A stretch of DNA of 42,604 nt from a virus (lineage: Duplodnaviria; Caudoviricetes). The translations under genes were made by a program, and so were the position numbers. This document shows, in pieces, positions 1,928-18,262 of the stretch. Position 1 is the first letter of the stretch. Each line of letters opens with the position of its first letter. The stretch is from positions 1 to 42,604 of the IMG/VR virus record IMGVR_UViG_3300027921_000010; one strand, written 5' to 3'. The notes under the pieces are model-generated. The model did no database searches, was not told where the DNA came from, and saw only the letters and a program-made list of their open reading frames with translations.

Positions 1928-3531
1928 TCCTCCGAGACTACCAGATCGCTGCGGTGCAAAGCATCTTCGAGTATTTCGCAGACGGCGGTAAAGGCAACCC
2001 TATTGTCGCACTGCCCACGGGCACAGGTAAGTCTGTGGTTATCGGGGCGTTCATCAAAGAGGCCCTCCAAACCTATCCAGGCACGCGGGTTATGAAGCTG
2101 ACCCACGTCAAGGAACTAATCGAGCAGAACTTTGAAAAACTCCTTGCCGTCTGGCCGACGGCTCCGGCCGGTATCTACTCGGCTGGCCTGGGTCGCAAGG
2201 ATACCGGACACCCAATCTTGTTTGGCGGCGTCGGTACGGTGGCCAGAGGTACCTCCAAGATGTTCGGCCGCATAGATCTACTCATTATTGATGAGTGCCA
2301 CTTGGTATCCCCCAAAGAGATGACCATGTACCAACAAGTCATCAAGGGGCTTAAAGAGGTCAACCCATATCTCAAGGTCATCGGCTTCACGGCTACGCCC
2401 TATCGCCTGGGCCATGGCATGCTAACCGATGAAGGGGGCCTCTTCACTGACCTGTGCTTCGACTTGACACGTATGGAGGCCTTCAATTGGATGCTCCAGC
2501 AAGGTTACTTGGCCCCTCTAGTACCTCGCCGGACGTCCATGGAACTAGACGTTTCAGGCGTCCGTACTCACGGTGGTGAGTACAGGCAAAATGAGCTGCA
2601 GGAAGCGGTCGACCGCGAGGAGATCACATACCGAGCCATCCAAGAGGTCTTAGCCTACGGGGGAGACCGCGAACATTGGCTTGTCTTCACCTCCGGGATT
2701 GAACACGCTATCCACGTTACCGCCATGTTAGAGGCCCTGGGCGTCGCCGCCACTTGCGTCCACTCCAAGATGTCCAACGGAGAGCGCGATGCGAACATCC
2801 TAGACTTCAAGTCGGGGAAGTATCGGGCCATGGTGAACAATGGCATATTGACCACAGGCTTCGATTTCCCGGGCATCGACTTGATTATTATGCTGCGTCC
2901 GACGCAGTCCCCGTCGCTGTGGGTCCAGATGCTGGGGCGGGGAACTCGTCCATTCCCGGGTAAGGCTAATTGTCTGGTCCTAGACTTCGCCGGTAATACC
3001 AAACGACTTGGACCAATCAACGATCCAGTGTTGCCACGGCGTAAGGGCAAGGGGCCAGCTGGCCAGGCCCCTATTAAGGTCTGCGAAGCGTGCGGTACCT
3101 ACAATCACACCAGTGCGCGCTTTTGTGCCCACTGTGGAGCCGAGTTCCCGCGCCAAGTTAAGATCCGAGATCATGCGGGTACGGACGAGCTGATCAAGAC
3201 CGAGGAAGTAAAAACCGAAATTTTCAAGGTCGACCGAGTCATCTACGCCGAGCACCGTAAAGAGGATCGCCCACCTACTATCCAGGTCAGCTACTTCTGT
3301 GGTCTTCGCATGTTCAAGGAGTGGGTGTGCCTTGAACATGGCGGCTACGCTAGCAAGAAAGCCCGGGATTGGTGGCGGGACAGAGCCTTAGACGAGCCAC
3401 CAGAAACCGTTGCCGAGGCCATGCAAAGTCTAGATATACTGCGCCCACCGAGCCACATCCGAGTATGGCTAAAGCCGAAGTACGACGAGGTTTTGGCCTA
3501 TGATTACACCAACACCGCCTTTGGAACCTAA
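1924..3531 (+). CDS. SF2 DEAH-type helicase, RadD/YejH-like, with Zn finger
   Basis: LRDYQ, Walker A PTGTGKS, DECH, TAT, TTGFD, QMLGRGTR, CEAC..CAHC. Confidence 0.93.
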   Translation: MILRDYQIAAVQSIFEYFADGGKGNPIVALPTGTGKSVVIGAFIKEALQTYPGTRVMKLTHVKELIEQNFEKLLAVWPTAPAGIYSAGLGRKDTGHPILFGGVGTVARGTSKMFGRIDLLIIDECHLVSPKEMTMYQQVIKGLKEVNPYLKVIGFTATPYRLGHGMLTDEGGLFTDLCFDLTRMEAFNWMLQQGYLAPLVPRRTSMELDVSGVRTHGGEYRQNELQEAVDREEITYRAIQEVLAYGGDREHWLVFTSGIEHAIHVTAMLEALGVAATCVHSKMSNGERDANILDFKSGKYRAMVNNGILTTGFDFPGIDLIIMLRPTQSPSLWVQMLGRGTRPFPGKANCLVLDFAGNTKRLGPINDPVLPRRKGKGPAGQAPIKVCEACGTYNHTSARFCAHCGAEFPRQVKIRDHAGTDELIKTEEVKTEIFKVDRVIYAEHRKEDRPPTIQVSYFCGLRMFKEWVCLEHGGYASKKARDWWRDRALDEPPETVAEAMQSLDILRPPSHIRVWLKPKYDEVLAYDYTNTAFGT

Positions 3532-3532
3532 C

Positions 3533-3736
3533 ATGGAACCCAACCACCTTAAATCTGAAGCGTCTGACCTCCTTCACCGTGAACTTGTCAACAATTTTAT
3601 AGTGAAGTCCTGCCTTAACTGTCTCGGCTTCGACCAGAAAGTGGAAGTCTGCCTTTTCTACGTGGGTAGTCCCCGCCCGCCCGCCCCGGTGATTGTGTTT
3701 GGTTGCTCCTCTTGGGAACTAGATATCCCGTTCTAA
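3533..3736 (+). CDS. Small Cys-rich protein ending in DIPF
   Basis: ATG 3533 follows the helicase stop at 3531. CLNC...C...C motif; C-terminus WELDIPF. Confidence 0.75.
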   Translation: MEPNHLKSEASDLLHRELVNNFIVKSCLNCLGFDQKVEVCLFYVGSPRPPAPVIVFGCSSWELDIPF

Positions 3737-3765
3737 AATATTTTTCAAAAAGATGTGATTTCGTG

Positions 3766-3794
3766 TTGACTCCCGGCTGCTTAGATTAGACAAT
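3766..3794 (+). promoter_or_regulatory. sigma70-like promoter
   Basis: TTGACT-17 nt-GACAAT with an AT-rich upstream tract, ahead of AAGGAG and ATG 3853. Confidence 0.65.
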
Positions 3795-3852
3795 TTGGTC
3801 ATGGATCGAAACAAGCAACAACCCTAAACCTCAACAGCCAAGGAGATTTAAG

Positions 3853-4284
3853 ATGACCACCACAACCACGAAGACCTACTCGACCGCTTCCAATGCTCGC
3901 CGCGCCGCGAAACAAGCGGGTCTCACTCTCGACCTGGTCGAGATCCTGAACGACGGTTTCAGCGTTGGTCGCAAGTTTTGGTTTCAAACCATTCCAGTCG
4001 AAGACGTAACGGGTGGTGAACACTTTCACAGTGTTACCGAGGAAGAGCACGCTGCTCACCGCGGAGAAGTCCCCAACAAATCCACAATCGAGCGCCCCTG
4101 CCAACGAGTCTGGATCATCGCCGACGACATGCTGGTGGCCAACCCCAGCGTCAAGCGCAAAGACGTGATGGCGGCCTGCGTCGCAGCGGGTGTCGCCTTC
4201 TATACGGCACGCACCCAGTACCAGCAGTGGATAGGCGTTCGCAAAGAGATGGCTGCCCGCGAAGCCGCGGCTAAATCCAAATAG
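3853..4284 (+). CDS. Hypothetical protein, paralogue 1 of the RVW..AD...TA.TQY..W family
   Basis: Strong RBS (AAGGAG). C-terminal domain is shared with the next two ORFs. Confidence 0.8.
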   Translation: MTTTTTKTYSTASNARRAAKQAGLTLDLVEILNDGFSVGRKFWFQTIPVEDVTGGEHFHSVTEEEHAAHRGEVPNKSTIERPCQRVWIIADDMLVANPSVKRKDVMAACVAAGVAFYTARTQYQQWIGVRKEMAAREAAAKSK

Positions 4285-4914: not shown

Positions 4915-4978
4915 TTGACCCAAAGAAGTTAAGCGAGTAGTATCTCTTCATGGACGCGGTGTCCATGAAGAGATACTA
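4915..4978 (+). promoter_or_regulatory. sigma70-like promoter overlapped by an 18-bp perfect inverted repeat
   Basis: TTGACC(4915)-17 nt-TAGTAT(4938). Inverted repeat TAGTATCTCTTCATGGAC-GCGGT-GTCCATGAAGAGATACTA at 4938-4978. Confidence 0.7.
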
Positions 4979-4999: not shown

Positions 5000-5389
5000 A
5001 TGGCAAAGAAGAAACCCGAAGCAACTAAGAAACCCGAAGTCAACACGGTCCCCACTCCGGCCCCTACACTGACCCCCACTCCGACCCCCGAGAAGGTTGG
5101 GCAGCCGACGGCTAACGGCGTCACCCGCCCGAAGTCGGGCACGATCTGCGGTCGCATCTGGGAGATGGCAGATGCGTTGTCGGCCACTATCGGTGTGCCG
5201 GCCGACCGCGCCTCAATCCTGGAGCAGGCCAAGATTGAGGGCATCAATGATGCCACAGCTGCTACCCAGTATGGCAAGTGGTGCAAGTTCTACGGTGTCA
5301 CCAAGCCGCACGCTGAAAAAGCGGCTGCCGAGGTGGTCGAGGAAGCGGCTGCCGAGGTGGTCGAGGAAGCGGCTGCCGAGGTGGTCTAG
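5000..5389 (+). CDS. Hypothetical protein, paralogue 3 (Pro/Thr linker, acidic repeat tail)
   Basis: AGGAG RBS; PKSGTICGRIWEMAD...TAATQYGKW; AAAEVVEE repeats. Confidence 0.85.
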   Translation: MAKKKPEATKKPEVNTVPTPAPTLTPTPTPEKVGQPTANGVTRPKSGTICGRIWEMADALSATIGVPADRASILEQAKIEGINDATAATQYGKWCKFYGVTKPHAEKAAAEVVEEAAAEVVEEAAAEVV

Positions 5390-5395
5390 GAAGCG
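5321..5395 (+). repeat. 24-bp tandem repeat x3 (AAAEVVEE)
   Basis: GCGGCTGCCGAGGTGGTCGAGGAA at 5321, 5345 and 5369; the third copy has GAG changed to TAG. Confidence 0.95.
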
Positions 5396-5520: not shown

Positions 5521-6228
5521 ATGAACAACCAGTCTATCGAAAAGTATCAAAACCGGAAGCTACTGGATGTCCACAGTATCTTCTATACCATCCAAGGTGA
5601 AGGCCCATTCAGCGGCACCCCCGCGGTGTTCATTCGCCTGGCGGGCTGCAACCTCCAGTGCCCGTTCTGCGACACCGACTACTCCAGCGCCCGTTCTACG
5701 ATATCCCTGGCAGGGGTAGTCGATATAGTCAGGGGCCTTCGCCCATCGGGATTAGTCGTTATCACCGGAGGGGAACCCTTCCGCCAGAATATTAGCCCCT
5801 TATTAGACCGGCTAGTTGACTACGGCTTCTACGTCCAACTAGAAACAAACGGAAGTCTTGAACCGTGGCTAGACCATGACCGCCTTGGAATAAACCTCAG
5901 TGATCGCTTTGGGGTCTACATCGTCGTTAGCCCCAAGACCCCGAAAATTCATCCAGAAGCACACCGTGTAGCTCACGCCTACAAATACGTCTTGTCAGCC
6001 GACAGCATAGCAGACGACGGCCTCCCGACAGTAGTTCTAGGCCACGGGCGAACGCAGGTGGCCAGGCCTACCCAATATTCTGTTGGAACTACTCCAGTCT
6101 ACCTCTCTCCAATGGATTCCGGGGATCCATCAGTCAACGTAGCCAATGTCCAAGCCGCGGTAAAATCTTGCTTAGAGAACGGCTATATTTTCCAACTGCA
6201 AATTCATAAACTGATTGGGGTCGAATGA
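5521..6228 (+). CDS. queE: 7-carboxy-7-deazaguanine synthase (radical SAM)
   Basis: IFYTIQGEG, RLAGCNLQCPFCDT, TGGEP, ETNG, VSPK, QIHKLIG. Confidence 0.95.
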   Translation: MNNQSIEKYQNRKLLDVHSIFYTIQGEGPFSGTPAVFIRLAGCNLQCPFCDTDYSSARSTISLAGVVDIVRGLRPSGLVVITGGEPFRQNISPLLDRLVDYGFYVQLETNGSLEPWLDHDRLGINLSDRFGVYIVVSPKTPKIHPEAHRVAHAYKYVLSADSIADDGLPTVVLGHGRTQVARPTQYSVGTTPVYLSPMDSGDPSVNVANVQAAVKSCLENGYIFQLQIHKLIGVE

Positions 6229-7034
6229 TGCATAGAGCCCTTGTAATCCTTTCTGGTGGGCAGGATTCCACCACCGCCCTGTTCTGGGCTAAGAACGTGT
6301 TTGATGAGGTTCACGCTATCACCTTTGATTATGGACAACGCCATAGCCTGGAAATTGCGTCGGCCTTGAAGGTGGCCGAGCTGGCTGGAGTAGAAAGCCA
6401 TGAACTGATCTCCGTTCCCAAGATCTTAAAGTCTACTTCTCCCCTCACCAATCCGGACGCCCAGTTGGAACTTTATACCAACGCTAGGCAGATGGACAAG
6501 GCTATCGGGAGCCGCCGAGAAGCAACCTTTGTCCCAATGCGTAACGCCTTGTTCCTCACCATCGCAGCCAATCGAGCGGAGGTGGCTGGTATAGGGAATC
6601 TAGTCATTGGGGTCTGCCAGATGGACAACGCCAATTATGATGACTGCCGGGGAGCCTTCATCGAAGTTGCGGAAGCTTATGTCAACTTTGCTCTTGGCCA
6701 CGACCATCGTGGCACGCCGGAAATCGTCATTCACACCCCTCTGTTGTATAAGTCAAAGGCCGAGACAGTCACCCTGGCTGCGAAACTGCCAGGGTGTTGG
6801 GAGGCCTTAGCCCATACACATACCAGCTACGATGGCAAATATCCCCCGACCGATATGAACCATGCCAACGTACTGCGGGCCGATGGCTTCGAGAAGGCGG
6901 GGTTTCCAGATCCGCTGGTTGTGCGAGCCGTACACGAGGGTTTGATGCCCTGGCCCGCAACCTATAATTATGACGAGGTTAGCGGGCGCAACCGGGCTAA
7001 AGCGGAAGAGGAGGCTCAAAGTGATCACAGCTGA
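6225..7034 (+). CDS. queC: 7-cyano-7-deazaguanine (preQ0) synthase
   Basis: SGGQDS PP-loop, FDYGQRH..E, TFVPMRN, YDDCR, TPL...K. C-terminal Zn cysteines are absent. Confidence 0.93.
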   Translation: MMHRALVILSGGQDSTTALFWAKNVFDEVHAITFDYGQRHSLEIASALKVAELAGVESHELISVPKILKSTSPLTNPDAQLELYTNARQMDKAIGSRREATFVPMRNALFLTIAANRAEVAGIGNLVIGVCQMDNANYDDCRGAFIEVAEAYVNFALGHDHRGTPEIVIHTPLLYKSKAETVTLAAKLPGCWEALAHTHTSYDGKYPPTDMNHANVLRADGFEKAGFPDPLVVRAVHEGLMPWPATYNYDEVSGRNRAKAEEEAQSDHS

Positions 7035-7479
7035 ACGCCACCACGACATATCCTGCGGACACCGAGTAGTCGGCCACGAATCGAAGTGCCGCCACCTGCA
7101 CGGCCACAACTACCGCGTGCATTTTACAGTAGCCGCTGAATACCTAGATGATATCGGGCGTGTCATGGACTTCTCGGCGATCAAGGAACTCCTTTGCGTG
7201 TGGCTGGAGGACAACTGGGACCATAAGTTTCTGGCTTTTGAAGCGGACCCCGTGATGAGAGCTATCTACGCGCAGGCTAAGAGCTGTGCGCAGGCTGAGG
7301 ATGGATTGACGCTGGTGGAATCCATTGTCTTTGTGCCTTTCAACCCAACAGCCGAGAATATGGCTCAGTACCTTGTTGAGGTTATAGGTCCCCAGCAACT
7401 TTGGGCTACCGACGTCACTCTGATCAAGGTAGTCATCGAAGAAACCCGCAAGTGTTCTTGCACTTTTGAGAAGGACTAA
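7021..7479 (+). CDS. queD: 6-carboxy-5,6,7,8-tetrahydropterin synthase
   Basis: H...C..LHGHNY, DF..IK, WDH, NPTAENMA, EET. Start moved to GTG 7021 (GAGGAGG upstream). Confidence 0.95.
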   Translation: MITAERHHDISCGHRVVGHESKCRHLHGHNYRVHFTVAAEYLDDIGRVMDFSAIKELLCVWLEDNWDHKFLAFEADPVMRAIYAQAKSCAQAEDGLTLVESIVFVPFNPTAENMAQYLVEVIGPQQLWATDVTLIKVVIEETRKCSCTFEKD

Positions 7480-7486
7480 TCTTACC

Positions 7487-8503
7487 ATGAGCGAAAGACT
7501 CAATCATAACGACGTGATCGACCTGGCCTCCATCTTAGCTGGCGAGGCACACTCTCTGGGGTTTGGTCCGAAGGTGTTTCCGATACCGCGAGGCGGAGTC
7601 CCTGCCGCCTACGCCGTACTGGCGGCCGCGGGTCACTTTCAACTCACCCTCGACCCTGAAGAAGCCGACTTCTTCGTAGACGACATCATCGATTCCGGAA
7701 CCACCATGCGCAAGTGGTGTGATGAATTCCCCGGGAAGCCTTTCCTCGCCTTAATTGACAAAACCTCCTCCGATTGCCCATGGAAAGGCAAGTGGGTTGT
7801 GTTTCCGTGGGAAAAGGAACCCACGGAGGTGGAAGACGACTCTATTGTCTCGACCATCCGCAACCGTATGGAGCGCGTAGGGGCTCCCTACTTCGCCAAT
7901 GACTGCATTGCACCCTTCATCTTCTCAAATGAGAGGCATCTCCTCCAGCTAGAGGTGGAACAGCGAGTGGAGCATCTCCTCCGCGGCCTACTGATTGACG
8001 TTGACCGCGACCACAACACCCAGGATACCGCCAAGAGGGTTGCCAAGATGTACCTGAACGAGGTCTTCAAAGGACGCTACCACCCAGCTCCGAAGATCAC
8101 GGACTTCCCCAATGCGAAAAACCTGGACGAGATGTACGTCACCGGACCAATCACAATCCGCTCCGCTTGTAGCCACCATCTGGTGCCGATAGTCGGCCGC
8201 TGCTGGATCGGGATCATCCCGGGAGAGCGGGTCATCGGCCTGTCCAAGTTCAACCGGCTAGTCGACTGGATCGCTTCACGTCCACAAATCCAAGAAGAGA
8301 TGGTCGTCCAGATTGCCGATTACGTCGAGAATCGGGTTGCCCCTGAAGGCCTCGCTGTGGTTATTGAAGCTACCCACCTCTGCATGACTTGGCGCGGGGT
8401 TAAGGAGCCGGCCGAGGCGGCAATGACCACAAGCGTCATGCGGGGCTCCTTCCGAACCAAACCGGAGGCCAGGGCAGAATTTATGGCTTTGGTGAAGAAA
8501 TAA
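7487..8503 (+). CDS. folE: Fusion of an N-terminal purine phosphoribosyltransferase-like domain and GTP cyclohydrolase I
   Basis: N-terminus has PRGG, PRPP-binding FVDDIIDSGTT and WVVFPWE. C-terminus has DTAKRVAKMY, SACSHH, GLSKFNR, QIQEE, HLCMTWRGV. Start at ATG 7487. Confidence 0.93.
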   Translation: MSERLNHNDVIDLASILAGEAHSLGFGPKVFPIPRGGVPAAYAVLAAAGHFQLTLDPEEADFFVDDIIDSGTTMRKWCDEFPGKPFLALIDKTSSDCPWKGKWVVFPWEKEPTEVEDDSIVSTIRNRMERVGAPYFANDCIAPFIFSNERHLLQLEVEQRVEHLLRGLLIDVDRDHNTQDTAKRVAKMYLNEVFKGRYHPAPKITDFPNAKNLDEMYVTGPITIRSACSHHLVPIVGRCWIGIIPGERVIGLSKFNRLVDWIASRPQIQEEMVVQIADYVENRVAPEGLAVVIEATHLCMTWRGVKEPAEAAMTTSVMRGSFRTKPEARAEFMALVKK

Positions 8504-8570
8504 GTTGAATTAGTTGGTGGGGTGATTTATGATTAGGTCATTCCCACCGACTAAGGAGTTAGACATGACC
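8504..8570 (+). promoter_or_regulatory. Repeated expression leader, copy 1 (promoter, inverted repeat, RBS, ATGACC)
   Basis: TTGAAT-17 nt-TATGAT; TAGTTGGTGGG...CCCACCGACTA; TAAGGAG; near-identical to 8874-8940. Confidence 0.8.
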
Positions 8571-8759
8571 AAGGCCGAAAAACAAGCTATCGCCAAAGCT
8601 GCGATAAAAATGTCCGAATTGATAACTGAGTTCGGAAGGGATAATTGCGGGGTGGACGCATGGCAGCGTGGGCATGATTTGCCGCGTGGTGTCAAGTACG
8701 GTTTTTACTGTACCCGTGGGGCGGGATTCGTGACATGTTTCGTGAGGCCCGCCTCATAA
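8565..8759 (+). CDS. Small hypothetical protein (moron-like)
   Basis: TAAGGAG RBS before ATG 8565; own promoter and a downstream hairpin. Confidence 0.75.
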   Translation: MTKAEKQAIAKAAIKMSELITEFGRDNCGVDAWQRGHDLPRGVKYGFYCTRGAGFVTCFVRPAS

Positions 8760-8767
8760 CAGCAACG

Positions 8768-8807
8768 TGGTGCGGCCCGGCGCCTCGCCGCTGGGTACGC
8801 ACTATTT
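8768..8807 (+). terminator. Terminator-like hairpin
   Basis: GTGCGGCCCGGCG...CGCTGGGTACGCAC followed by TATTT. Confidence 0.5.
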
Positions 8808-8814
8808 CCCATAC

Positions 8815-8865
8815 TGGGACAAGTACCTCACGGACGGGGCTGGTCGCCCGCGCATCCGAGTTCAT
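8815..8865 (+). pseudogene. 17-codon fragment of a dpdA homologue
   Basis: Translates to WDKYLTDGAGRPRIRVH, identical to dpdA 9669-9719, with 10 third-position differences. Confidence 0.85.
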
Positions 8866-8873
8866 GAAAAAGG

Positions 8874-8940
8874 GTTGAACTAGTTGGTGGGGGTGGTGAT
8901 AATCTAATCATTCCCACCCACTAAGGAGTTCGACATGACC
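8874..8940 (+). promoter_or_regulatory. Repeated expression leader, copy 2
   Basis: TTGAAC-17 nt-GATAAT; GGTGGG...CCCACC; TAAGGAG; ATGACC. Confidence 0.8.
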
Positions 8941-9159
8941 TACGAAGAAAAAGCCAAAGCTGCAGCCCAACAACAAGCCTCTATTGGGGATTCATGCGGC
9001 TTAGATACGAATATCTACGGGGAATTCACGCTCGGCATATATGATACGTCAGTTAAGCCAGCGCAGTACTTTCAGCTTAAGTATAAGTCGGCCGAAGCCG
9101 CACGCAACGCAGCTAAGAACTTCGGCTTTGTTAAAGTTTTTGATCGTATTAGGGAATAA
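8935..9159 (+). CDS. Small hypothetical protein
   Basis: Strong RBS; TAATG overlap with dpdA. Confidence 0.75.
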   Translation: MTYEEKAKAAAQQQASIGDSCGLDTNIYGEFTLGIYDTSVKPAQYFQLKYKSAEAARNAAKNFGFVKVFDRIRE

Positions 9160-10103
9160 TGAAGCTATACATCGCTGGGATCTATACCTCCAATTTCAAA
9201 ATTGGGGGTTCCCTCTACAATCGCTTGACGGACGGGGAAAAGGCCCTCCGTCACAGCGTGTCCTGCGTCCTGGAATCCTACCACTACATCGGGCGCCAAT
9301 CGTATGTTGACGCCCTGCGGACCGACAAGCAAAAGGTGTTCTTAGACTCGGGGGCCTTCTCGGCCTTCACCAAGGGCATCGAAGTCGACCTCCCCGCCTA
9401 CTGCGAGTATGTCAAGCGGAACATTGACATCATTGAGCACGTTGACGGCGTCCCATTAGCGTCGGTCCTGGACGGTATTGGTGATCCCCTGAAGACCTGG
9501 CAAAACCAGCAGGCTATGGAGCGCCTTGGCGTTCGGCCGCTGCCTTGCTTTCACTATGGTGAAGATGAACGATACCTTGAGTGGTATCTGGCCAATTATG
9601 ACTACATCACCCTGGGAGGCATGGTACCCATCTCGACCAAAGACCTTTTGATCTGGCTAGATCGCATCTGGGACAAATACCTGACCGACGGGGCAGGGCG
9701 ACCCCGTATCCGCGTTCACGGGTTTGGTCTCACTGCATATGTCTTGATGCAACGCTACCCGTGGTTCTCCGTTGACTCATCATCCTGGGTCCAGCAGGCG
9801 GCTAACGGCAACATCGTCTTGACCGACTATCGCTTTGGCTCGGTGATCTACCTCCCAGTTTCGGACAAGAGCCCTACCCGTCGCCAAGATGGGCGCCACA
9901 TTGACACTATGACCGAGATCGAGCGGGGACTTCTATGGGAGCACGCCAAGAAGTCCGGCTCGAATATTGAGCGCCTGAAGGCCGAGTACGTGAGTCGCTG
10001 GTGCTATAATATTGCCAGCTACGACAAGCTCGGGAAGATCCTGACCGACTTGACCAAGACCTTCAAGGCCGACCAGCAAGACCTATTTCAAGGACTCTTA
10101 TGA
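9159..10103 (+). CDS. dpdA: DNA-guanine transglycosylase (TGT-fold, DpdA family)
   Basis: FLDSGAFS, LDGIGD, PCFHYGE, LGGMV, VHGFG, SVDSSSW; clustered with folE/queDEC. DpdA subtype not assignable by eye. Confidence 0.88.
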   Translation: MKLYIAGIYTSNFKIGGSLYNRLTDGEKALRHSVSCVLESYHYIGRQSYVDALRTDKQKVFLDSGAFSAFTKGIEVDLPAYCEYVKRNIDIIEHVDGVPLASVLDGIGDPLKTWQNQQAMERLGVRPLPCFHYGEDERYLEWYLANYDYITLGGMVPISTKDLLIWLDRIWDKYLTDGAGRPRIRVHGFGLTAYVLMQRYPWFSVDSSSWVQQAANGNIVLTDYRFGSVIYLPVSDKSPTRRQDGRHIDTMTEIERGLLWEHAKKSGSNIERLKAEYVSRWCYNIASYDKLGKILTDLTKTFKADQQDLFQGLL

Positions 10104-11229: not shown

Positions 11230-13202
11230 GGACTGACTCCATAGGCATGTTCTGGCATGATGAGCCTGTGGCTAGGAGAGGGGAGAAGGTCCAACGGAAC
11301 CAACCGCCTATCCCGGACACCGGCTGGCTCCCACCGATTTATTTCCCGGACCTATCCTCCGCCGCGTGCATCTCAGTCGACTGCGAGACCTATGACCCCG
11401 AACTGATTGATCATGGGCCTGGCTGGGCTCGGGGTAAGGGTCATATTGTCGGGGTGGCAATAGGTGTGCCGGGGGGCCATCGCTGGTATTTCCCGATGCG
11501 CCACACCATTGAGCCAGAGATGAATCTCCCCCCTGAACGGGTACTTACCTGGCTCGCGGACACGCTCGGTAACGCGCGTCAACCAAAGGTAGGGGCCAAC
11601 CTCCTATACGACGTTGGATGGCTCGCCCATGAGGGTGTCCGCGTGTGTGGGGAGCTAGTGGACGTCCAGTACGCCGAAGCTTTATTAGACGAGCGGGCCG
11701 AGGTCGCCCTAGAGGTCTTAGGTCAGAAATACCTAGGAGAAGGCAAGCATTCCAACCTTCTCTATCAGTGGTGCTCGGACTTCTATTGCGGGGCTGCCAA
11801 TCATAATCAGCGGGCGAACATCTACCGAGCCCCGCCAAGACTGGTCGGCCCTTACGCCGAAAGAGACGCCGATCTGCCCCTGCGAGTGGCCGCGGTGATC
11901 TTTCCGAAGTTGGTGGCGGAAGGACTTCTTGACTTATTCCGGATGGAATGTGCCTTGATTCCACTGCTGGTAGCTATGCGGATGGCCGGGGTATCCGTCA
12001 ACATCGCCCGGGCCGAGGAACTCCGCGATACCCTTGCCAAGCGTGAGGCGTTGGAGGTCGAGAAGCTGACGGCCCTAGCTGGCTCCCGTGTGGATATTAA
12101 CTCCGCCGATAGCCTAGCCAAGGTGTTCGACCGGGCAGGCCTGACTTACAACAAGACGGTTAAAGGCAAGCCCAGCTTCACAAAAGATTTTTTGAAGGCC
12201 GTGGAACACCCGATTGCCGACAGCATCCGCGAGATCCGCAAGCTGTCCAAGCTGCGCGGCACCTTTGTCGAATCCTACATCCTCAATTCGCATGTCGATG
12301 GCAAGGTCTATGGCCAATTCCACCTACTGCGTGGCGACGAAGGCGGCACCCGTTCTGGCCGCCTATCTAGCTCGACGCCGAACCTGCAGAACCTCCCAAG
12401 CCGAGATGACGAGCTGGCCCCACTGGTTCGCGGTCTCTTTATCCCGGACGCTGGACACTTTCAGTGGCGCAAGTACGACTACAGCCAAATCGAGTATCGC
12501 TTTCTGATTCACTTCGCTGTCGGGCCGGGCTCGGACGAGATTCGGGCCTACTTCAACATCCACCCAGATACCGACTACCACGACCGGACGCGCGATCTGG
12601 TCCACGAAGAAACAGGCATCCTCCTGGACCGTCGCCCTATCAAGAACATCAACTTCGGCTTGATCTACGGCATGGGCGTCGACAAACTGTCTCGGGGGCT
12701 TGGCCTCACGCCAGCGAAAGGGAAGGAACTGTTCGCCGCTTACCACAGGGGCGTGTCCTTCGCCAAACCGACCATGGACGCCTGTTCGGAGGAGGCTTCC
12801 TCGACCGGAATCATCACGACTATCCTAGGCCGCAAGTCTCGTTTCGATCTGTGGGAGCCAGGCGGCTGGGATAGGGAAACCATCGCCTTGCCCTACGAGA
12901 AGGCTATCCTCAAATACGGAAACATTCGGAGGGCCTACACGCACAAGGCCCTTAACCGGCGCTTACAGGGATCGTCCGCCGATTTACTCAAGAAGGCCAT
13001 GCTAAGGTGCTGGGAGGACGGAATCTTCGCAGAAACAGGCGTTCCGCGCCTCACGGTCCATGACGAGCTCGATTTCAGCGACCCAGGCGGAAAAGACGAT
13101 GCTTTCCGCGAGATGCAGCGAGTTCTTGAAACAACCATTCCCTTACGCATCCCGGTCAGGGCAGATGGTGAAGTCGGGCCAGACTGGGGCCACGTCAAAT
13201 AA
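11226..13202 (+). CDS. polA: Family A DNA polymerase with 3'-5' exonuclease
   Basis: ExoI DCET, ExoII NLLYD, ExoIII YAERD; GRLSS..PNLQN; motif A DYSQIE; motif B KNINFGLIYG (Phe at the 762-equivalent position); motif C VHDEL. Start GTG 11226 (GTGA overlap). Confidence 0.97.
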   Translation: MRTDSIGMFWHDEPVARRGEKVQRNQPPIPDTGWLPPIYFPDLSSAACISVDCETYDPELIDHGPGWARGKGHIVGVAIGVPGGHRWYFPMRHTIEPEMNLPPERVLTWLADTLGNARQPKVGANLLYDVGWLAHEGVRVCGELVDVQYAEALLDERAEVALEVLGQKYLGEGKHSNLLYQWCSDFYCGAANHNQRANIYRAPPRLVGPYAERDADLPLRVAAVIFPKLVAEGLLDLFRMECALIPLLVAMRMAGVSVNIARAEELRDTLAKREALEVEKLTALAGSRVDINSADSLAKVFDRAGLTYNKTVKGKPSFTKDFLKAVEHPIADSIREIRKLSKLRGTFVESYILNSHVDGKVYGQFHLLRGDEGGTRSGRLSSSTPNLQNLPSRDDELAPLVRGLFIPDAGHFQWRKYDYSQIEYRFLIHFAVGPGSDEIRAYFNIHPDTDYHDRTRDLVHEETGILLDRRPIKNINFGLIYGMGVDKLSRGLGLTPAKGKELFAAYHRGVSFAKPTMDACSEEASSTGIITTILGRKSRFDLWEPGGWDRETIALPYEKAILKYGNIRRAYTHKALNRRLQGSSADLLKKAMLRCWEDGIFAETGVPRLTVHDELDFSDPGGKDDAFREMQRVLETTIPLRIPVRADGEVGPDWGHVK

Positions 13203-13224
13203 TTCTAAAAAGTTACGATTTGGT

Positions 13225-13260
13225 GGTGTCTCTTTGGATTGGACACCCTATAATCTAATC
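13225..13260 (+). promoter_or_regulatory. Putative promoter of the accessory region
   Basis: TATAAT at 13249 followed by CTAATCA (as at 8904); GGTGTC/GACACC inverted repeat upstream; weak -35. Confidence 0.5.
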
Positions 13261-13283
13261 ACCCTAACGCACCGGAGAACGAA

Positions 13284-13568
13284 ATGACCGACGAAAAAGT
13301 TACTGTTATTGCGACCCCTAAGGATGCCATCAAGCTTCTGAAACGCCAGCGCGGAAAGGGCATGGCCCTGTTCATAAGCGTTGGCCAACTCGCCCCTATC
13401 GAAGGTGAGGAAGGGCGGGTGTTCCCTATCCTTGGCAACGTCCGTGTTACCCTGGGAGCCGCGGTGAGATTTATCGAGGGAGCCTACAGCGAGACCCTGG
13501 CCGCTCGCGGGGCTCGCATCCGGGTCACGACCTGGGGAAAGTGCATCTTTATTGGAGACGCAGCATGA
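13284..13568 (+). CDS. Hypothetical protein
   Basis: GGAG RBS; 94 aa. Confidence 0.75.
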   Translation: MTDEKVTVIATPKDAIKLLKRQRGKGMALFISVGQLAPIEGEEGRVFPILGNVRVTLGAAVRFIEGAYSETLAARGARIRVTTWGKCIFIGDAA

Positions 13569-13720
13569 AAAGAGACGCCCTTGTAGCCTTTTTGAAGGAA
13601 CTCGGCTGGGCGGTCGACAAGTACGGCCACCTTCAGAAGACCATCGGCCCGAAGAAGTACCGGGTCCCGCTGCAAGCGATAGTTAGATTTGGAGGATTGA
13701 CAAATGAAATGGGAAATTGA
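13565..13720 (+). CDS. 51-aa hypothetical protein (not in the ORF track)
   Basis: ATGA overlap; MKRDALVAFLKELGWAVDKYGHLQK... Confidence 0.65.
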   Translation: MKRDALVAFLKELGWAVDKYGHLQKTIGPKKYRVPLQAIVRFGGLTNEMGN

Positions 13721-14006
13721 CTCGCGGGAATATGCCCGTGGGGAAGTGCTCTATCTTGGCCCGTGGCAAGTCGGCGGCGCGCATTACGACGGAACGACAG
13801 CAAAAACCGCAAAAGACAAATACCGAGCGACTTGCGATCTACCTGGGATTGGCCGACTTGGGTTGTACGAAACGCGCGAACTGGCAAAGCAGCGCGTAGA
13901 AAAGGCGGTGTGGTCATGGCTGGATAAGCTGCCACATATGAATTTAACACGCCAGGGAGTAGATTGTATAAATCACCCTGGAAAAACCATCTACGAGGAA
14001 AAATAA
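13704..14006 (+). CDS. Hypothetical protein
   Basis: GGAGG RBS; 100 aa. Confidence 0.75.
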   Translation: MKWEIDSREYARGEVLYLGPWQVGGAHYDGTTAKTAKDKYRATCDLPGIGRLGLYETRELAKQRVEKAVWSWLDKLPHMNLTRQGVDCINHPGKTIYEEK

Positions 14007-14204
14007 ATGAGTGCTATACCGCTTTTGATCGCTTTTGTCTTCATCGTGCTTATGGCTGTAGTGGGTCAAGGCGATTATGAGGAAGCCAAGGCCCAGGAAA
14101 AACGTTATTGTCAAATGGTGGCCGCTGGGTATTGGCCGGATTACCTTGCCACCTATAGTACTCAGTGCCTGAAAGCATCTGGCCGGGTTCCATGCAACAA
14201 TTGA
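14007..14204 (+). CDS. Small membrane-anchored phage protein
   Basis: N-terminal hydrophobic helix, then G.GDYEEA....YC.MV..G.WPDY. Confidence 0.75.
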   Translation: MSAIPLLIAFVFIVLMAVVGQGDYEEAKAQEKRYCQMVAAGYWPDYLATYSTQCLKASGRVPCNN

Positions 14205-14309
14205 GCACCGAAGGCGTCTGATGGGTGCGCGGATTCATCGCGGCGGGTGGGTAGTTTCGCCCGTCCGCGTTCTGCTAGATTTACGATTGATATTCTGGAT
14301 TGGATAACG

Positions 14310-14528
14310 ATGACCCGAGTTGAATTGAACGAGGGCAGCTATGCGTTTGTGCTGGCCCAGGTGGCACTGCTGAACTGCGAGGTTGCAGGTATGCAAGCCG
14401 AGAACCAGCATCGCATGAACTGCGGACTGTCGATTGCCTACGGCGCCGCCGAGTTCGCTGGCGTGCGCCAGCAGTACGAGGCACTGATTGGCAGCAATGA
14501 AATTCTGAACATGGTCGGGCGTGCATGA
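14310..14528 (+). CDS. Hypothetical protein
   Basis: ATG 14310 within track ORF 14247..14528; GM.AENQHR..CG.SIAY motif. Confidence 0.65.
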   Translation: MTRVELNEGSYAFVLAQVALLNCEVAGMQAENQHRMNCGLSIAYGAAEFAGVRQQYEALIGSNEILNMVGRA

Positions 14529-14644
14529 ACATCTGTTTGTCCGAGAAGCGTAACCCGTTCTCGCGTTGCCACAACAATCGTGACCACAACAATGGATTGC
14601 AACACGCTGCGGATGCTATCCGGGCGCGCCCAACGCCAGTTTAA
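14525..14644 (+). CDS. 39-aa hypothetical or remnant ORF running into the attC-like site
   Basis: ATGA overlap with the upstream gene; ends ADAIRARPTPV*. Confidence 0.4.
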   Translation: MNICLSEKRNPFSRCHNNRDHNNGLQHAADAIRARPTPV

Positions 14645-14709
14645 GCGGGCGCGGCGATTAACGAAGGCGAGCCGGCATGTTGCCGGTCCGCTCGATGAGC
14701 TTGTTGGGC
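14628..14709 (-). mobile_element. Integron attC-like recombination site 1
   Basis: Minus strand: R'' GCCCAAC-5 nt-L'' CATCGAGC ... L' GCTTAAA-5 nt-R' GTTGGGC; 82-bp imperfect palindrome. Confidence 0.7.
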
Positions 14710-14737
14710 ATGACAACGCAAAATAAACGTTACTTAT

Positions 14738-14757
14738 TTATATCCAATGGATATAAT
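14738..14757 (+). promoter_or_regulatory. -10 box within a palindromic operator-like site
   Basis: TTATATCCA-A-TGGATATAA overlapping TATAAT (14752-14757); CAGGAG RBS before ATG 14800. Confidence 0.6.
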
Positions 14758-14799
14758 AGAGTCATGTTCAACAAGGCGCGAAGCCCACAGGAGTAGATC

Positions 14800-15117
14800 A
14801 TGACAGACTCATCGACCTTTACAGTAGTGCTTGCAGACGAGCAAATTCCCCGTGGGGTGTATCGCCCACGGAATTTGCTGTCCGAGGGGTTTTACCGAGT
14901 CACATCGATAGTGGAGGGACTTTCGGAAAGTCTCCCGCCCTGCCTGCGGGGGCTGTACAGGGACGGCGTGATCGTCCCTGGCCAAGTACTGTTTTTCCGT
15001 CTGTGTACAGACACAGACTACACCCCAGCTGGGAGTAATGACGGAATCAGGGACTCTGGAAGTTCCCATACGACCGAATACCGTAGGTATTTCGGCGACG
15101 AAAATGAATACAAATGA
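14800..15117 (+). CDS. Hypothetical protein (cassette cargo)
   Basis: AGGAG RBS, own promoter, lies between the two attC-like sites. Confidence 0.7.
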   Translation: MTDSSTFTVVLADEQIPRGVYRPRNLLSEGFYRVTSIVEGLSESLPPCLRGLYRDGVIVPGQVLFFRLCTDTDYTPAGSNDGIRDSGSSHTTEYRRYFGDENEYK

Positions 15118-15254
15118 CCAACGCCACCAGCATCAAAGTGGCAACGGTGGGAGGGACAGTCCCGCCGCACGACGGAAATCCCGTATGCCCACTGGACGCT
15201 TTTTTGCTGATGGTTGGCGCACACCCGGAAATGAAAGGGGTGCCCAACGTCTAG
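15114..15254 (+). CDS. 46-aa hypothetical ORF ending inside the attC-like site
   Basis: ATGA overlap with 14800..15117; MTNATSIKV...KGVPNV*. Confidence 0.45.
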   Translation: MTNATSIKVATVGGTVPPHDGNPVCPLDAFLLMVGAHPEMKGVPNV

Positions 15255-15307
15255 GGTAACCGGCAAGCCGGCATTTTGGCTTGTCCGAGTTGACCCGATT
15301 GTTGGGC
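15242..15307 (-). mobile_element. Integron attC-like recombination site 2
   Basis: Minus strand: R'' GCCCAAC-AATCG-L'' GGTCAACT-CGGACAAGCC-loop-GGCTTGCC-L' GGTTACC-CTAGAC-R' GTTGGGC. 66 bp, canonical 5/6-nt spacers, extra C at L'' position 4. Confidence 0.8.
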
Positions 15308-15329
15308 ATGACAACTTAGGAGAATGGAA

Positions 15330-15488
15330 ATGGAAATTGGAACTGTAATAGCGGTTGCTGGTGTATGGCTGTTCGTCGGGTTGCTTGGAAAGAGCGATAC
15401 CGTGCCGGCACATGGACTGCTACTCGGAATAGTTGTTGCGTTTACGGTTACGGTGTTCCTCGCGTGGCTCCTCGCGGGGCTGGCATGA
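15330..15488 (+). CDS. 52-aa two-TM membrane protein (cassette cargo; not in the ORF track)
   Basis: AGGAG RBS 7 nt before ATG 15330; MEIGTVIAVAGVWLFVGLLGKSDTVPAHGLLLGIVVAFTVTVFLAWLLAGLA*. Confidence 0.7.
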   Translation: MEIGTVIAVAGVWLFVGLLGKSDTVPAHGLLLGIVVAFTVTVFLAWLLAGLA

Positions 15489-15489
15489 C

Positions 15490-15510
15490 GCCCAACGCAA
15501 CTTAGCCGAC
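15490..15510 (-). mobile_element. Candidate attI-like site or truncated attC
   Basis: Minus strand GTCGGCTAAGTTGC-GTTGGGC: same R core as both attC sites, with no R'' partner seen upstream. Confidence 0.4.
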
Positions 15511-15552
15511 ATTTGTCCGGTAATCTGCTCTGCGACAGATTACCGGACAAAT
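15511..15552. terminator. 17-bp perfect inverted repeat at the convergence of the two arms
   Basis: ATTTGTCCGGTAATCTG-8 nt-CAGATTACCGGACAAAT between stops at 15488 (+) and 15559 (-). Confidence 0.65.
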
Positions 15553-15558
15553 TACATG

Positions 15559-15723
15559 CTATTGGATGATCCTCCGGACGATCCCCGGCGAGGTGTGGCA
15601 GTGCGCCGTGAAGTATACGGCCTGCTCCCGGCGTTCGTACTTCACGTACTCGCATTGCTGGGCGGTAGGCATGGCAGAGCAGCCGGCGAGCAGGCTCAGT
15701 AGAAGGGCAGTCAGGGTCTTCAT
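15559..15723 (-). CDS. Small lipoprotein (possible spanin component)
   Basis: MKTLTALLLSLLAGC signal peptide with lipobox; AAGGA RBS; start 15723. Confidence 0.7.
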   Translation of the reverse strand: MKTLTALLLSLLAGCSAMPTAQQCEYVKYERREQAVYFTAHCHTSPGIVRRIIQ

Positions 15724-15890
15724 TTGGGGTTCCTTGTGGACTGAAATCGAAACCATAGAGCGGAGATCATACCGCCCAGGGCTATGGTGGTGTTGGTCAA
15801 GCATTCCGTGTCGATCTGGTAGCCCAGGTCATTCGCTAGGGTAGCTACCAGGCTGACCAGGATGGATAGGTAGGTTCGATAGCCTTGCAT
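15720..15890 (-). CDS. Holin-like two-TM protein
   Basis: MQGYRTYLSILVSLVATLA...IALGGMISALWFRFQSTRNPK with a basic C-terminus; at the end of the late operon. Confidence 0.6.
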   Translation of the reverse strand: MQGYRTYLSILVSLVATLANDLGYQIDTECLTNTTIALGGMISALWFRFQSTRNPK

Positions 15891-15892
15891 GG

Positions 15893-16126
15893 TCAGGTTC
15901 CAATAAACAGTAGGCTGTCGCGGTCGCACTCAATCTCCATCAGCACAGCCAGCGGGGTAAAATTTACGCAGTCACCCTGCGCTTTCACCTTACCAAAAGA
16001 ATAACGCTTGGTAGGTACGGAACAACTATAGTCTTCTACCGGGGGCTTATCATGCCATTTAACCGTGTTTTTATCACAGTTTCTGCAGCGCGGACAGATG
16101 GAGTTCACCATTGCGTCTATGTTCAC
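15893..16126 (-). CDS. Cys-rich hypothetical protein
   Basis: Overlaps the upstream stop; CPRCRNC...C...C; no lysin motif. Confidence 0.55.
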   Translation of the reverse strand: MNIDAMVNSICPRCRNCDKNTVKWHDKPPVEDYSCSVPTKRYSFGKVKAQGDCVNFTPLAVLMEIECDRDSLLFIGT

Positions 16127-16335
16127 TTGATACCTCTTACCACTCCATAGGTAGAAATACCTATCAGGATTACAATAATGCCCTTCCAGACAAGCCCCCA
16201 GAATCCGCGTCCAAGGTTGAGGTAGAAACGGTTGGCGAGGCGACGCTCCATCTCGTTGGCTAGGGCCTGTACGTCAGCGTCGGTCAGTGCTCGTGACCGA
16301 CGCTCATCGAGTTGGTGTTGCTGAATGCGTGTCAT
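16123..16335 (-). CDS. Small membrane protein (holin/antiholin candidate)
   Basis: GGAGG RBS; C-terminal TM helix; downstream of the tailspike. Confidence 0.7.
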   Translation of the reverse strand: MTRIQQHQLDERRSRALTDADVQALANEMERRLANRFYLNLGRGFWGLVWKGIIVILIGISTYGVVRGIK

Positions 16336-16487
16336 GCTGCCTCCGCGTAAACTGAAATATATTTAGCTCCTGCTCGGCGGAAGTGCTCGCGCAACAGCAC
16401 CCAGGGTATCCAGCGATAGACACTGGCAAGGGCGGTCTCGCAGTCGCAGGGAAAGCGAATGACAAAGTGCAAATGGACGTAGGTCAT
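16332..16487 (-). CDS. 51-aa hypothetical protein
   Basis: ATG 16487 overlaps the tailspike stop (ATGA); its own stop overlaps the next start. Confidence 0.55.
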   Translation of the reverse strand: MTYVHLHFVIRFPCDCETALASVYRWIPWVLLREHFRRAGAKYISVYAEAA

Positions 16488-18262
16488 GGTTCGAAGCTGA
16501 TCGTGCCGCCGTTTATGGATGACACCTCCCATGCACCGGCTACGGTGCATACCAGTTCAACGCATGTCCCTTGCGTATTAAGGGATAGGTACTTCCCGCC
16601 TCCCCCGGCCGTTCCTGCGTTACGGATTACGTCTGTGCCATTCGGAACTACGCGTATCGCATAGGTGACGTTGTTACGAGTAAATCTGTAGTTCAGACCC
16701 GCTGCTGCTACCGGGAGAGAAAAAGTGACAATCGACGCCGCGCTATTGTTCGTAAAAACATACCCATAGTCCGAGGTCGTGACTGTGTAGTCGCCCGTCT
16801 TGGTAACAATATTTTTCTTCTGCAAGATGTACGTAGAGGCTACAAGCCCGCCGCCGCTGTGCCTAGTCAGGTTAACGTCACTGACCCCTGATCCTGACCC
16901 CCAAAACATCCCGCCGCTATTGTTTAGTTGAAAGCGGTAGTAAGCATCACCGCTAGCCTTACCCTGCAGGGTGGTCGATCCGGCACTTTGCAGACTGTCG
17001 GTGAGAGCGTCGCGCAGGTATGTCCCGCGAAGCGCCGCTCCAATCAACTCCATCCATTTGGTCAAGACACCATTGGCATTGTCTATCATAAAGACGTTGC
17101 CGGCGTTATTGATCCCTGCACCACTAAAGTCTGTGGCCTGATTAAAGCGGGTACCGTAAAACTGCGCACCTTTTGTAGTCGCGTCTATGTTGACACCACC
17201 AGATGTATTAGACTCAACCCACCCACCAAACACCGACAATGCCTGATTTATGCAAGTCGTCAGCTTGTAAGCATAGCCACCATTGGTTTCCACTGACGTC
17301 CCGGTAACATTGATGCCCTTGCAGTTCACAAGATTAAACCCGTCACCAGTGTTCGCAGATACCTGGCCACCGATGAAATTATGTACGTTAGCTCGGCTGT
17401 CTGGATTTACGTCTCCGTCTATCTTTACACCAGCGCCACCATTGTTCTTCGACACTAGATTCACGTAGGTATTGTAATAAGTTCCATCGCCCGTAATACC
17501 TTTGATGCTAAGTCCATCCGAAGTACATCCCATGATAAATAGCGAATGCAACTCCGCGTTATTTGCGCCGTTATGATACCAGCCATTTGCCGCCACGCTA
17601 TTACCATTCAAGCGTAATCCTCCGACAACTGTTACACCGTCGGCAGTATTGGTAATTATCGGCGCAGGCGTGGCGCCAAACTTGAACTTGAGTATTGAAC
17701 CATACGAACCAGTAATCCGCTTCACCGCGCTATTCGTTATCCCAGTGACAATGTACGTGCCATCAGGAAAATCAATACAATCTGCGCCACTGTCAAACGC
17801 CGCCTGAACGGCCGTCGTCACGTCAAGCGCTTCCGCGCCAGCCTGCACGTCAGTGATTTCGGCCGCAGTCATGAAGTCAAAGGCGCTCACGGACTCACGC
17901 AATTTGGCTTGCAACGTGGTTGCCACAGCGCCTGTCCCTGCCGGAGTATAACCTATAGCATCGGCTCCTTCTGCTCCGACCTCTGGTACAGACCAGACTA
18001 AGCGACCGTGGACATCCCGTACTAGCATGGAGCAGCTGGTTCCGGGAATATATACACGTGCAGGGCTTCCATTGCGCACGAGATAACCCTGTTGCGTGCG
18101 AATTGGCTGTGCCGCAGGGGTCGTGAGTTCTTTGTCCCAATAAACCGATACGGGAGAAGTCTCGGGGTTTAACCCAGCAACACCGATGTAAACGCTACCA
18201 GCGTCTATTGGTTCGCCCCTCAAATCACATATATATTGGAATGGGATGACTACTGCAGACAT
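16484..18262 (-). CDS. Tailspike with P22-like head-binding domain and beta-helix body
   Basis: N-terminal PFQY..D..GEP..AG.VYIG....NP....V.VYWD......AAQPIRT..GY; pectate-lyase-like DVT.AVQAA..FP.GTY; Asn/Gly-rich repeats. Confidence 0.88.
   Translation of the reverse strand: MSAVVIPFQYICDLRGEPIDAGSVYIGVAGLNPETSPVSVYWDKELTTPAAQPIRTQQGYLVRNGSPARVYIPGTSCSMLVRDVHGRLVWSVPEVGAEGADAIGYTPAGTGAVATTLQAKLRESVSAFDFMTAAEITDVQAGAEALDVTTAVQAAFDSGADCIDFPDGTYIVTGITNSAVKRITGSYGSILKFKFGATPAPIITNTADGVTVVGGLRLNGNSVAANGWYHNGANNAELHSLFIMGCTSDGLSIKGITGDGTYYNTYVNLVSKNNGGAGVKIDGDVNPDSRANVHNFIGGQVSANTGDGFNLVNCKGINVTGTSVETNGGYAYKLTTCINQALSVFGGWVESNTSGGVNIDATTKGAQFYGTRFNQATDFSGAGINNAGNVFMIDNANGVLTKWMELIGAALRGTYLRDALTDSLQSAGSTTLQGKASGDAYYRFQLNNSGGMFWGSGSGVSDVNLTRHSGGGLVASTYILQKKNIVTKTGDYTVTTSDYGYVFTNNSAASIVTFSLPVAAAGLNYRFTRNNVTYAIRVVPNGTDVIRNAGTAGGGGKYLSLNTQGTCVELVCTVAGAWEVSSINGGTISFEP

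Follow-up and report, generated by a model that had tools for sequence, protein, structure and literature searches.

How does a phage that encodes no integrase come to hold integron cassettes, and by what means could such cassettes be gained or lost? Integrons are regarded as bacterial devices, and many integron cassettes are reportedly anti-phage, according to two 2024 preprints (10.1101/2024.07.02.601686 and 10.1101/2024.07.02.601719). The question was raised by a linear virus record of 42,604 bases (CheckV completeness, 94%), which was analyzed over its whole length and is called the window here. A preliminary description of the window had noticed two attC-like elements and had proposed that the phage uses the integron integrase of its host. 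We considered in turn whether the elements are attC sites, what they enclose, where related sites occur, and which history would best account for the locus.

RESULTS

Position of the array in the phage genome

A PHROGs scan of 54 proteins of the phage identified portal, capsid, terminase, primase, and family A polymerase, together with a Sak4-like annealing protein, a Cas4-like exonuclease, a RusA-like resolvase, and 7-deazaguanine genes; the phage is likely a lytic podophage. No integrase was detected by PHROGs among these proteins, and PF00589 had no match in the six frames of the whole record, which bears out the earlier statement that no tyrosine recombinase is encoded in the window. The array lies at the end of the plus-strand early block, where this block meets the minus-strand late genes. 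The last late gene on its strand (15559..15804, minus) appears from its signal sequence to encode a lipoprotein-like product, and no family match was obtained for it in Pfam- and PHROG-type searches.

Several other features of the genome were recorded. Positions 5521-10103 hold a 7-deazaguanine DNA modification set (QueE, QueC, QueD, GTP cyclohydrolase, and a TGT-like protein), which probably serves in anti-restriction. A 79-nt direct repeat (78%) at 8504-8582 and 8874-8952, a portion of which recurs at 13250-13272, carries a hairpin and a ribosome binding site (RBS) ahead of short early genes and may be a phage promoter element. Perfect hairpins were seen between genes at 4938-4978 (18 bp) and 60-87 (12 bp), the whole genome containing three perfect hairpins of at least 12 bp, and a 24-nt tandem repeat (5311-5395) closes ORF 5000-5389.

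Two attC sites on the minus strand

The two elements had been placed at 14628-14709 (site 1) and 15242-15307 (site 2), each bounded by GCCCAAC...GTTGGGC, and these coordinates proved exact: GCCCAAC starts at 14628, 15242, and 15490, and GTTGGGC starts at 14703 and 15301. When all 42,604 bases were searched for RYYYAAC...GTTRRRY pairs (at most 1 mismatch; separation of 40-160 nt), only these two elements were found. The attC architecture claimed for them on the minus strand was also recovered, with cores, 5-nt and 5/6-nt spacers, and L''/L' boxes. By an architecture score of our own, site 2 reached 20.5 and site 1 reached 18.0, and sites scoring at least 18 occurred at 0.025 per shuffled window (40 shuffles). 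A hairpin at 8874-8934 was rejected as an attC candidate, its score of 16.5 being at chance level.

An attC covariance model run on both strands had been named in the preliminary description as the means of checking its reading. We built such a model ourselves instead of using that of IntegronFinder and trained it solely on 54 attC sites from bacterial genomes; since these were chosen by a pattern shaped on the family of site 1, they are independent of the window in sequence and not in kind. On the minus strand the model gave 51.9 bits for site 2 and 37.6 bits for site 1, compared to 8.9 and 7.4 bits for the two elements on the plus strand and no more than 10 bits elsewhere in the genome. Both elements are therefore attC sites, with the minus strand as their top strand. 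The extra unpaired stem bases that had been claimed for site 2 were present as G16/A20/T24 on the plus strand, and site 1 had unpaired G16/T23 on that strand. In the Vibrio VCR2/1 site, G16, T20, and T24 are unpaired and G16 sets the strand, as described in the accessible part of the source (PMC2727003); because the unpaired bases of site 2 fall at the VCR2/1 positions, the plus strand is the bottom strand.

Two attC sites are the threshold for a CALIN in the accessible text of the relevant preprint (10.1101/2022.02.28.482270). Here the two neighboring sites lie 532 bp apart, with no integron integrase nearby (no PF00589 match in a record that is 94% complete). Compared with a complete integron, intI was absent, the genes had the wrong orientation, and an attI could be recognized where cassettes enter the array, by homology only and in truncated form. 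The locus is thus a true phage CALIN plus an attI and does not pass as a complete integron.

Site 2 is intact and site 1 is probably a hybrid

The L box of site 2 (top strand minus; 15242..15307) formed six of seven pairs, with a predicted pairing probability of 0.84-0.97 for the six, and its bottom strand is predicted to fold into a recombinogenic hairpin. Site 2 was 95% identical over 62 nt to an integron site of bacterial genome G288. Among viruses, the exact site-2 pattern had zero matches in IMG/VR, while the right-arm pattern matched 49 loci, mostly by chance, none of which held a full copy of site 2. Searches of the site sequences against plasmids and GenBank phages gave chance matches only.

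The L boxes of site 1 (top strand minus; 14628..14709) were mismatched, with 4.5 of 7 pairs. Comparison with 239 collected attC sites showed that its left arm is that of L164, identical over 25 nt, and that its center and right arm are closest to those of L013, the switch of type occurring at a shared 5-nt word near 14652-14656. The attC of L013 itself forms all 7 L-box pairs. The modeled pairing probability of the outer L pairs was at most 0.06 in site 1 (0.90-1.0 in L013) and that of the inner pairs was about 0.6, so that a weak fold is predicted for site 1. Judging by these arms, site 1 is probably a hybrid of the L164 and L013 types joined in mid-site, for which the simplest reading of its origin would be a deletion between two adjacent attC sites. 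A crossover inside an attC body is not a product of the G|TT reaction of IntI. The L013 locus (2800-4130; G007) belongs to a complete 46.8-kb phage without a tyrosine recombinase, and three inverted attC sites, one being the parent type of site 1, lie at its early/late junction.

An attI-type site at the entry end

The third R core, identical to the others, was found where the preliminary description had put it (15490-15496). Its reading as a broken attC was rejected, as it had no match to the attC model but did match a hidden Markov model (HMM) of attI. This HMM was built from 28 intI-upstream regions of a bacterial family that includes Thiobacillaceae, with the window left out of training. 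It gave a single match in the genome (15483-15549; 17.6 bits; E, 2.6e-5), which coincides with the entry end of the array and has the right sense; on 25 shuffles nothing reached 5 bits. A position matrix (22.7 bits versus 3.4) was dropped as proof of an attI and replaced by the HMM, because its training sites had been chosen by their likeness to the window. The attI-type site (15490..15552, minus) has the core G|TT at 15496/15495, an L box, and accessory boxes, of which one is full and the second is cut inside, leaving half. Exact blocks of 14, 13, and 12 nt are shared with locus L604. The piece faces the last late gene, whose stop is 6 nt away, and by its sequence it would function as an attI docking site.

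A perfect 17-bp inverted repeat (15511..15552), one of the three perfect hairpins of the genome and built from the attI boxes, stands at the early/late junction. It may act as a terminator; a terminator scan made no call there. Elsewhere, a degenerate third-core pattern had no match in IMG/VR, and a search with a loose core pattern gave largely chance matches. Among 400 viral and relative loci, the sole attI HMM match, a weak one (10.3 bits; E, 0.2), was in L143, at the entry end of an inverted array with 11 model matches. In L143 (620-5386), a phage array, at least 11 cassettes are inverted, and among their attC sites is a type that also occurs in the chromosomal integron of genome G117.

Two cassettes with inverted genes

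Crossover at G|TT yields the two units that had been proposed, of 614 bp (14634-15247) and 248 bp (15248-15495). The latter, cassette A (15248..15495), occupies the first position and consists of attC site 2 and an inverted gene (15324..15488, plus) for a 54-amino-acid protein with two hydrophobic stretches, predicted to be a membrane protein. The RBS of this gene lies directly past site 2, and its stop is 1 nt short of the attI core. The protein had no match in Pfam, PHROG, or the Atlas, and the search returned only its own record. In cassette B (14634..15247), attC site 1 is followed by an AT-rich leader and by two inverted open reading frames (ORFs). The first (14800..15117, plus) is RBS led and encodes 105 amino acids; the protein has a single true homolog, 82% identical over its full length, and no family or fold match was found for it in Pfam, PHROG, or the Atlas. 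The second (15114..15254, plus; 46 amino acids) overlaps the first at ATGA, runs into site 2, and forms a singleton cluster. The AT-rich stretch at 14720..14760 (plus), in which TATAAT is seen at 14752-14757, could speculatively be read as an internal promoter; a sigma-70 scan made no call in it.

The L169 cassette shares its head and its tail with cassette A but encloses an unrelated gene. Cassette A and the L169 cassette (3040-3310) each have the same 7-nt word just inside both ends, so that in the circular form a direct repeat would flank the attC; these words may reflect the way in which cassettes of this kind arise.

The coding part of each unit begins right after R'', and the three genes at 14800-15117, 15114-15254, and 15324-15488, all RBS led and on the plus strand, run opposite to the usual sense of cassette genes. 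None of the minus-strand ORFs of the cassettes was RBS led, and they were rejected as genes. Both cassettes are codirectional with phage genes. The same orientation prevailed in viral loci, where the RBS rule classed 97 sites as inverted, 6 as canonical, and 35 as unclear (138 sites, 72 loci); in bacterial loci the respective counts were 5, 37, and 74 (116 sites, 56 loci). Under a longest-ORF rule the inverted, canonical, and unclear sites numbered 42, 18, and 78 in viral loci and 9, 70, and 37 in bacterial loci. These counts are those of one pattern family under one simple ORF-plus-RBS rule, with a few bacterial sites taken on both strands and with flanks shorter than 250 nt left out. Phage cassettes of this kind are mostly inverted and bacterial ones are not. 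The orientation of the genes, the attI likeness of the third core, and the poor L-box pairing of site 1 had gone unmentioned in the preliminary description.

Possible remnants to the left of site 1

Just before the RBS and start of ORF 13704 (13704..14006, plus), a probable lone R''-L'' attC arm was found at 13663..13688 (minus). Its 15.3 bits are the third best value in the genome and are marginal, as the maximum over 20 shuffles was 14.9. ORF 13704 probably once was a cassette gene. Two close homologs of it (P0005 and P0006), compared as proteins only, end in PN, which is compatible with CCNAAC, and the window copy diverges there; the ORF had no relative in viral contigs and two weak phage matches. 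Farther right, a hairpin at 14241..14271 resembles the central stem of the L034, L143, and L153 attC sites, agreeing with L143 at 28 of 31 nt. The attC model gave it 8.8 bits (E, 4.3), which is not significant, and a decayed attC site is a possible reading. At 13249-13286, TATAAT is followed by a core-like CCCTAAC and then by a leader resembling the L191 cassette leaders (25/27 nt), perhaps another old insertion point.

Kindred sites in bacterial integrons

When site 2 was used to query 401 genomes of one betaproteobacterial order, 3 matches were obtained, the best being in G288. The family set of G288 comprised 222 genomes, including a Thiobacillaceae genome, and an IntI query at E <= 1e-80 was matched by 141 of them. 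At the 30 best intI loci, a conserved site preceded intI by about 150 nt or, in some loci, by about 250 nt, and in 14 of these loci attC sites followed beyond this attI site on the expected strand. Contig C31 of G288 carries housekeeping genes and an intact IntI (TIGR02249, 473.5 bits versus a cutoff of 265). On this contig the 95%-identical copy of site 2 heads an inverted DUF551 gene; two further cassettes are found alongside, one likewise inverted and the other a canonical ankyrin cassette. The inverted cassettes are separated from the attI by an IS91-like transposase and a second recombinase. At L558 (1250-3735; G288:C31), the IS91-like transposase and the second tyrosine recombinase sit exactly at the attI core.

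With site 2 and cassette A as the query, 7 of the 222 family genomes matched, in all cases inside the attC and leader. Three more bacterial arrays (L564, L565, and L568) held inverted genes headed by a site-2-type attC, and in 2 of the 30 intI loci (L589 and L598) the first cassette past attI is seemingly inverted. Phage origin is shown for the DUF551 gene only, because none of the four other inverted bacterial-array genes was matched in a PHROG search. One other match, in G059, is a prophage; in L561 (2500-4400; G059:C53) this prophage has inverted cassettes between head genes, one of them a DNA methyltransferase. The comparison of the cassettes with bacterial integrons that the preliminary description had suggested uncovered a 95%-identical copy of site 2 and neither cassette A nor cassette B.

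Mobility and relatives of the locus

Cassettes A and B were absent from every other phage and bacterium searched, and positions 13200-16500 had no match in GenBank phages. The joints expected from excision (14633/15248 and 15247/15496) were not seen in the contigs of the presumed source biofilm sample, an assembled form in which rare variants drop out. In biofilm run X1 many other contigs carried site 2, and the summed contig depth was about 4,100 over site 2, compared to 16-17 for the phage; the contigs with site 2 are other molecules, and since the sample may be the source of the window, they are not independent of it. Homology to other biofilm contigs started at 15242-15246 in 9 cases, with the opposite ends, among those listed, leading into ATG-bearing leaders. 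An X1 joint at 14657/15246 (side, 26 nt) was rejected as an excision product, as it fits a different molecule with the left arm of site 1. The locus was not covered in runs X2 and X3.

An all-against-all comparison of 92 attC-bearing loci, the window region included, yielded three pairs that share a whole gene (L170/L175, L048/L206, and L153/L169). In each pair the homology ceases at the next core, and one partner has no attC behind that core. Such bare-core ends are the pattern that would be expected from insertion at an attI or attG site. One gene was found with different attC bodies in L153/L169 and in L199/L229, and these mismatches, together with hybrid site 1, show exchange other than that of IntI.

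Of 25 polymerase relatives fetched, the 20 closest were scanned; 19 were without an attC, several of these sequences being too short for a firm answer. Few genes were found at the junction in eight relatives that were mapped across it. The polymerase relative L431 had a single attC, which agreed with the window in region and in sense. Since the relatives mostly lack attC sites at the junction, the array is a lineage-specific addition.

DISCUSSION

The explanation that we favor, and hold to be reasonably probable, is that the IntI of the host adds cassettes at an attI that the phage has captured, that early transcription from the far end reads their genes, and that older positions decay by deletions in attC stems. 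The phage would have acquired a piece of host attI, roughly 63 bp long, where its early genes end, and the host IntI would insert cassettes there during infection. Cassette B would have entered earlier than cassette A, because A adjoins the attI. Because the bottom strand of the attC sites carries the genes, early transcription entering at the far end would read them, and the head of each gene would be formed by an attC and its short leader. The same cassettes, once excised, could land in the array of the host, where the integron promoter would not read them. Deletions in the attC stems, through slippage or the Sak4-like annealing protein, would erode the older positions and may account for hybrid site 1 and for the remnants left of it. 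The exit of cassette B would require hybrid site 1 to fold well enough, and this folding is predicted to be poor. The favored explanation is supported by the covariance-model and attI HMM matches, by the G288 array and the inverted genes of other bacterial arrays, by the three pairs whose homology ceases at a core, and by the recombination of lytic-phage attC sites by IntI1 (PMC9892861). Against it stand the lack of an excision joint and of further copies of the cassettes, the exchange seen at site 1 and in two locus pairs, the cut in the second box of the attI, and the transposase and recombinase that intervene between the attI and the inverted cassettes in G288. The phage host is presumed here from the likeness of the sites only. 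The original proposal that the phage uses a host integron integrase thus stands as the best-supported route, but movement of cassettes A and B was not seen.

A more far-reaching version is possible, though we regard it with some doubt: a two-way exchange between lytic phages and host integrons, in which host IntI loads, at an attI captured at the end of an early operon, inverted cassettes that only phages express, and host arrays store these silently at their first positions. If this were true, the bacterial integron would double as a common library of phage accessory genes; in a bolder variant, host arrays would transcribe the stored cassettes as antisense RNA against phage early genes.

Three other explanations were weighed, and they and the favored one are not fully exclusive. 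The locus could be an integron piece, an attI with a few cassettes, that a single illegitimate recombination event brought into the phage; it would since have been decaying, IntI no longer acting on it. The truncated attI, hybrid site 1, the mere remnants farther left, and the lack of an excision joint in the biofilm-sample contigs all accord with this, and CALINs have been proposed to be degraded integrons in the accessible text of one preprint (10.1101/2022.02.28.482270). We nevertheless judge it unlikely, since site 2 and the core and L box of the attI are intact and near their bacterial copies, and since a copied host block would be expected to be mostly canonical, whereas both cassettes are inverted and codirectional with the phage genes. 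Less likely again is that the attC repeats act mainly as homology blocks for phage recombination between coinfecting phages, IntI having only seeded them. Such recombination would suit the Sak4-like, Cas4-like, and RusA-like proteins that are encoded, the mid-site hybrid at site 1, and the two locus pairs with the same gene and different attC bodies. It leaves the retained attI without explanation, however, and it is at odds with the three pairs in which a shared cassette stops at a bare core that is followed by unrelated DNA and with bacterial integrons whose first position holds an inverted cassette of phage type.

The sites might also be kept mainly as RNA elements, the hairpins processing or stabilizing the early transcript and the repeat stopping converging transcripts. 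That an RBS closely follows each attC on the coding strand, and that the 17-bp repeat falls at the early/late junction, would fit such roles. We give this explanation the least credence, as site 2 keeps the strand-specific unpaired bases and the cores needed by IntI, as relatives manage without such sites, and as the terminator scan passes over the repeat.

If cassettes do dock at the captured attI and recur in host integrons, then phages exploit an enzyme of the host for accessory genes of their own, and some of the chromosomal-array cassettes whose function is unknown would be phage genes. The locus also names a concrete source for the small orphan genes in variable regions of phages. Moreover, the idea can be tested directly at this locus, where the attI is defined, one attC is intact, the hybrid attC is a natural negative control, and the cognate family of IntI is known.

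Compared with sedentary chromosomal integrons of the G288 family, the phage array has the same attI motif, attC families, and G|TT bounds; it differs in having no intI, a truncated attI, and genes on the bottom strand. Expression would also differ, coming from the far end in the phage array and from a promoter beside the attI in a chromosomal integron. In the accessible part of a study of off-target insertion by Loot et al. (10.1101/2022.09.11.507474), IntI is described as inserting cassettes at positions outside integrons, where a bare core remains, and folded attC sites are described as prone to deletion by slippage. The attG insertions described in that part occur at random GWT, whereas the target here is a recognizable attI homolog.

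Phage attC clusters without an integrase have already been published: Qi et al. (2023) reported 17 CALINs among 10,705 phage genomes, and IntI1 recombined five of six lytic-phage attC sites in Escherichia coli (PMC9892861). The window resembles those CALINs in having at least two attC sites without intI and small cargo genes, and host IntI was proposed for them as well. Neither inverted cassettes in phages nor an attI in a lytic phage came up in our literature search, which did not extend to most subscription journals. The accessible text of PMC9892861 is silent on inverted genes, which its figures or annotation file may show, and it reports attI in temperate or cryptic phages only; the piece found here is a host-family attI. 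When phages of that study were checked, ctTUS972 and PH101 had inverted cassettes and TJE1 had canonical ones, and ctTUS972 is like the window in that its inverted sites lie near the same early/lysis junction. The window differs from the published phage CALINs also in that one of its attC sites recurs, nearly identical, in a bacterial integron and that the other is a probable hybrid.
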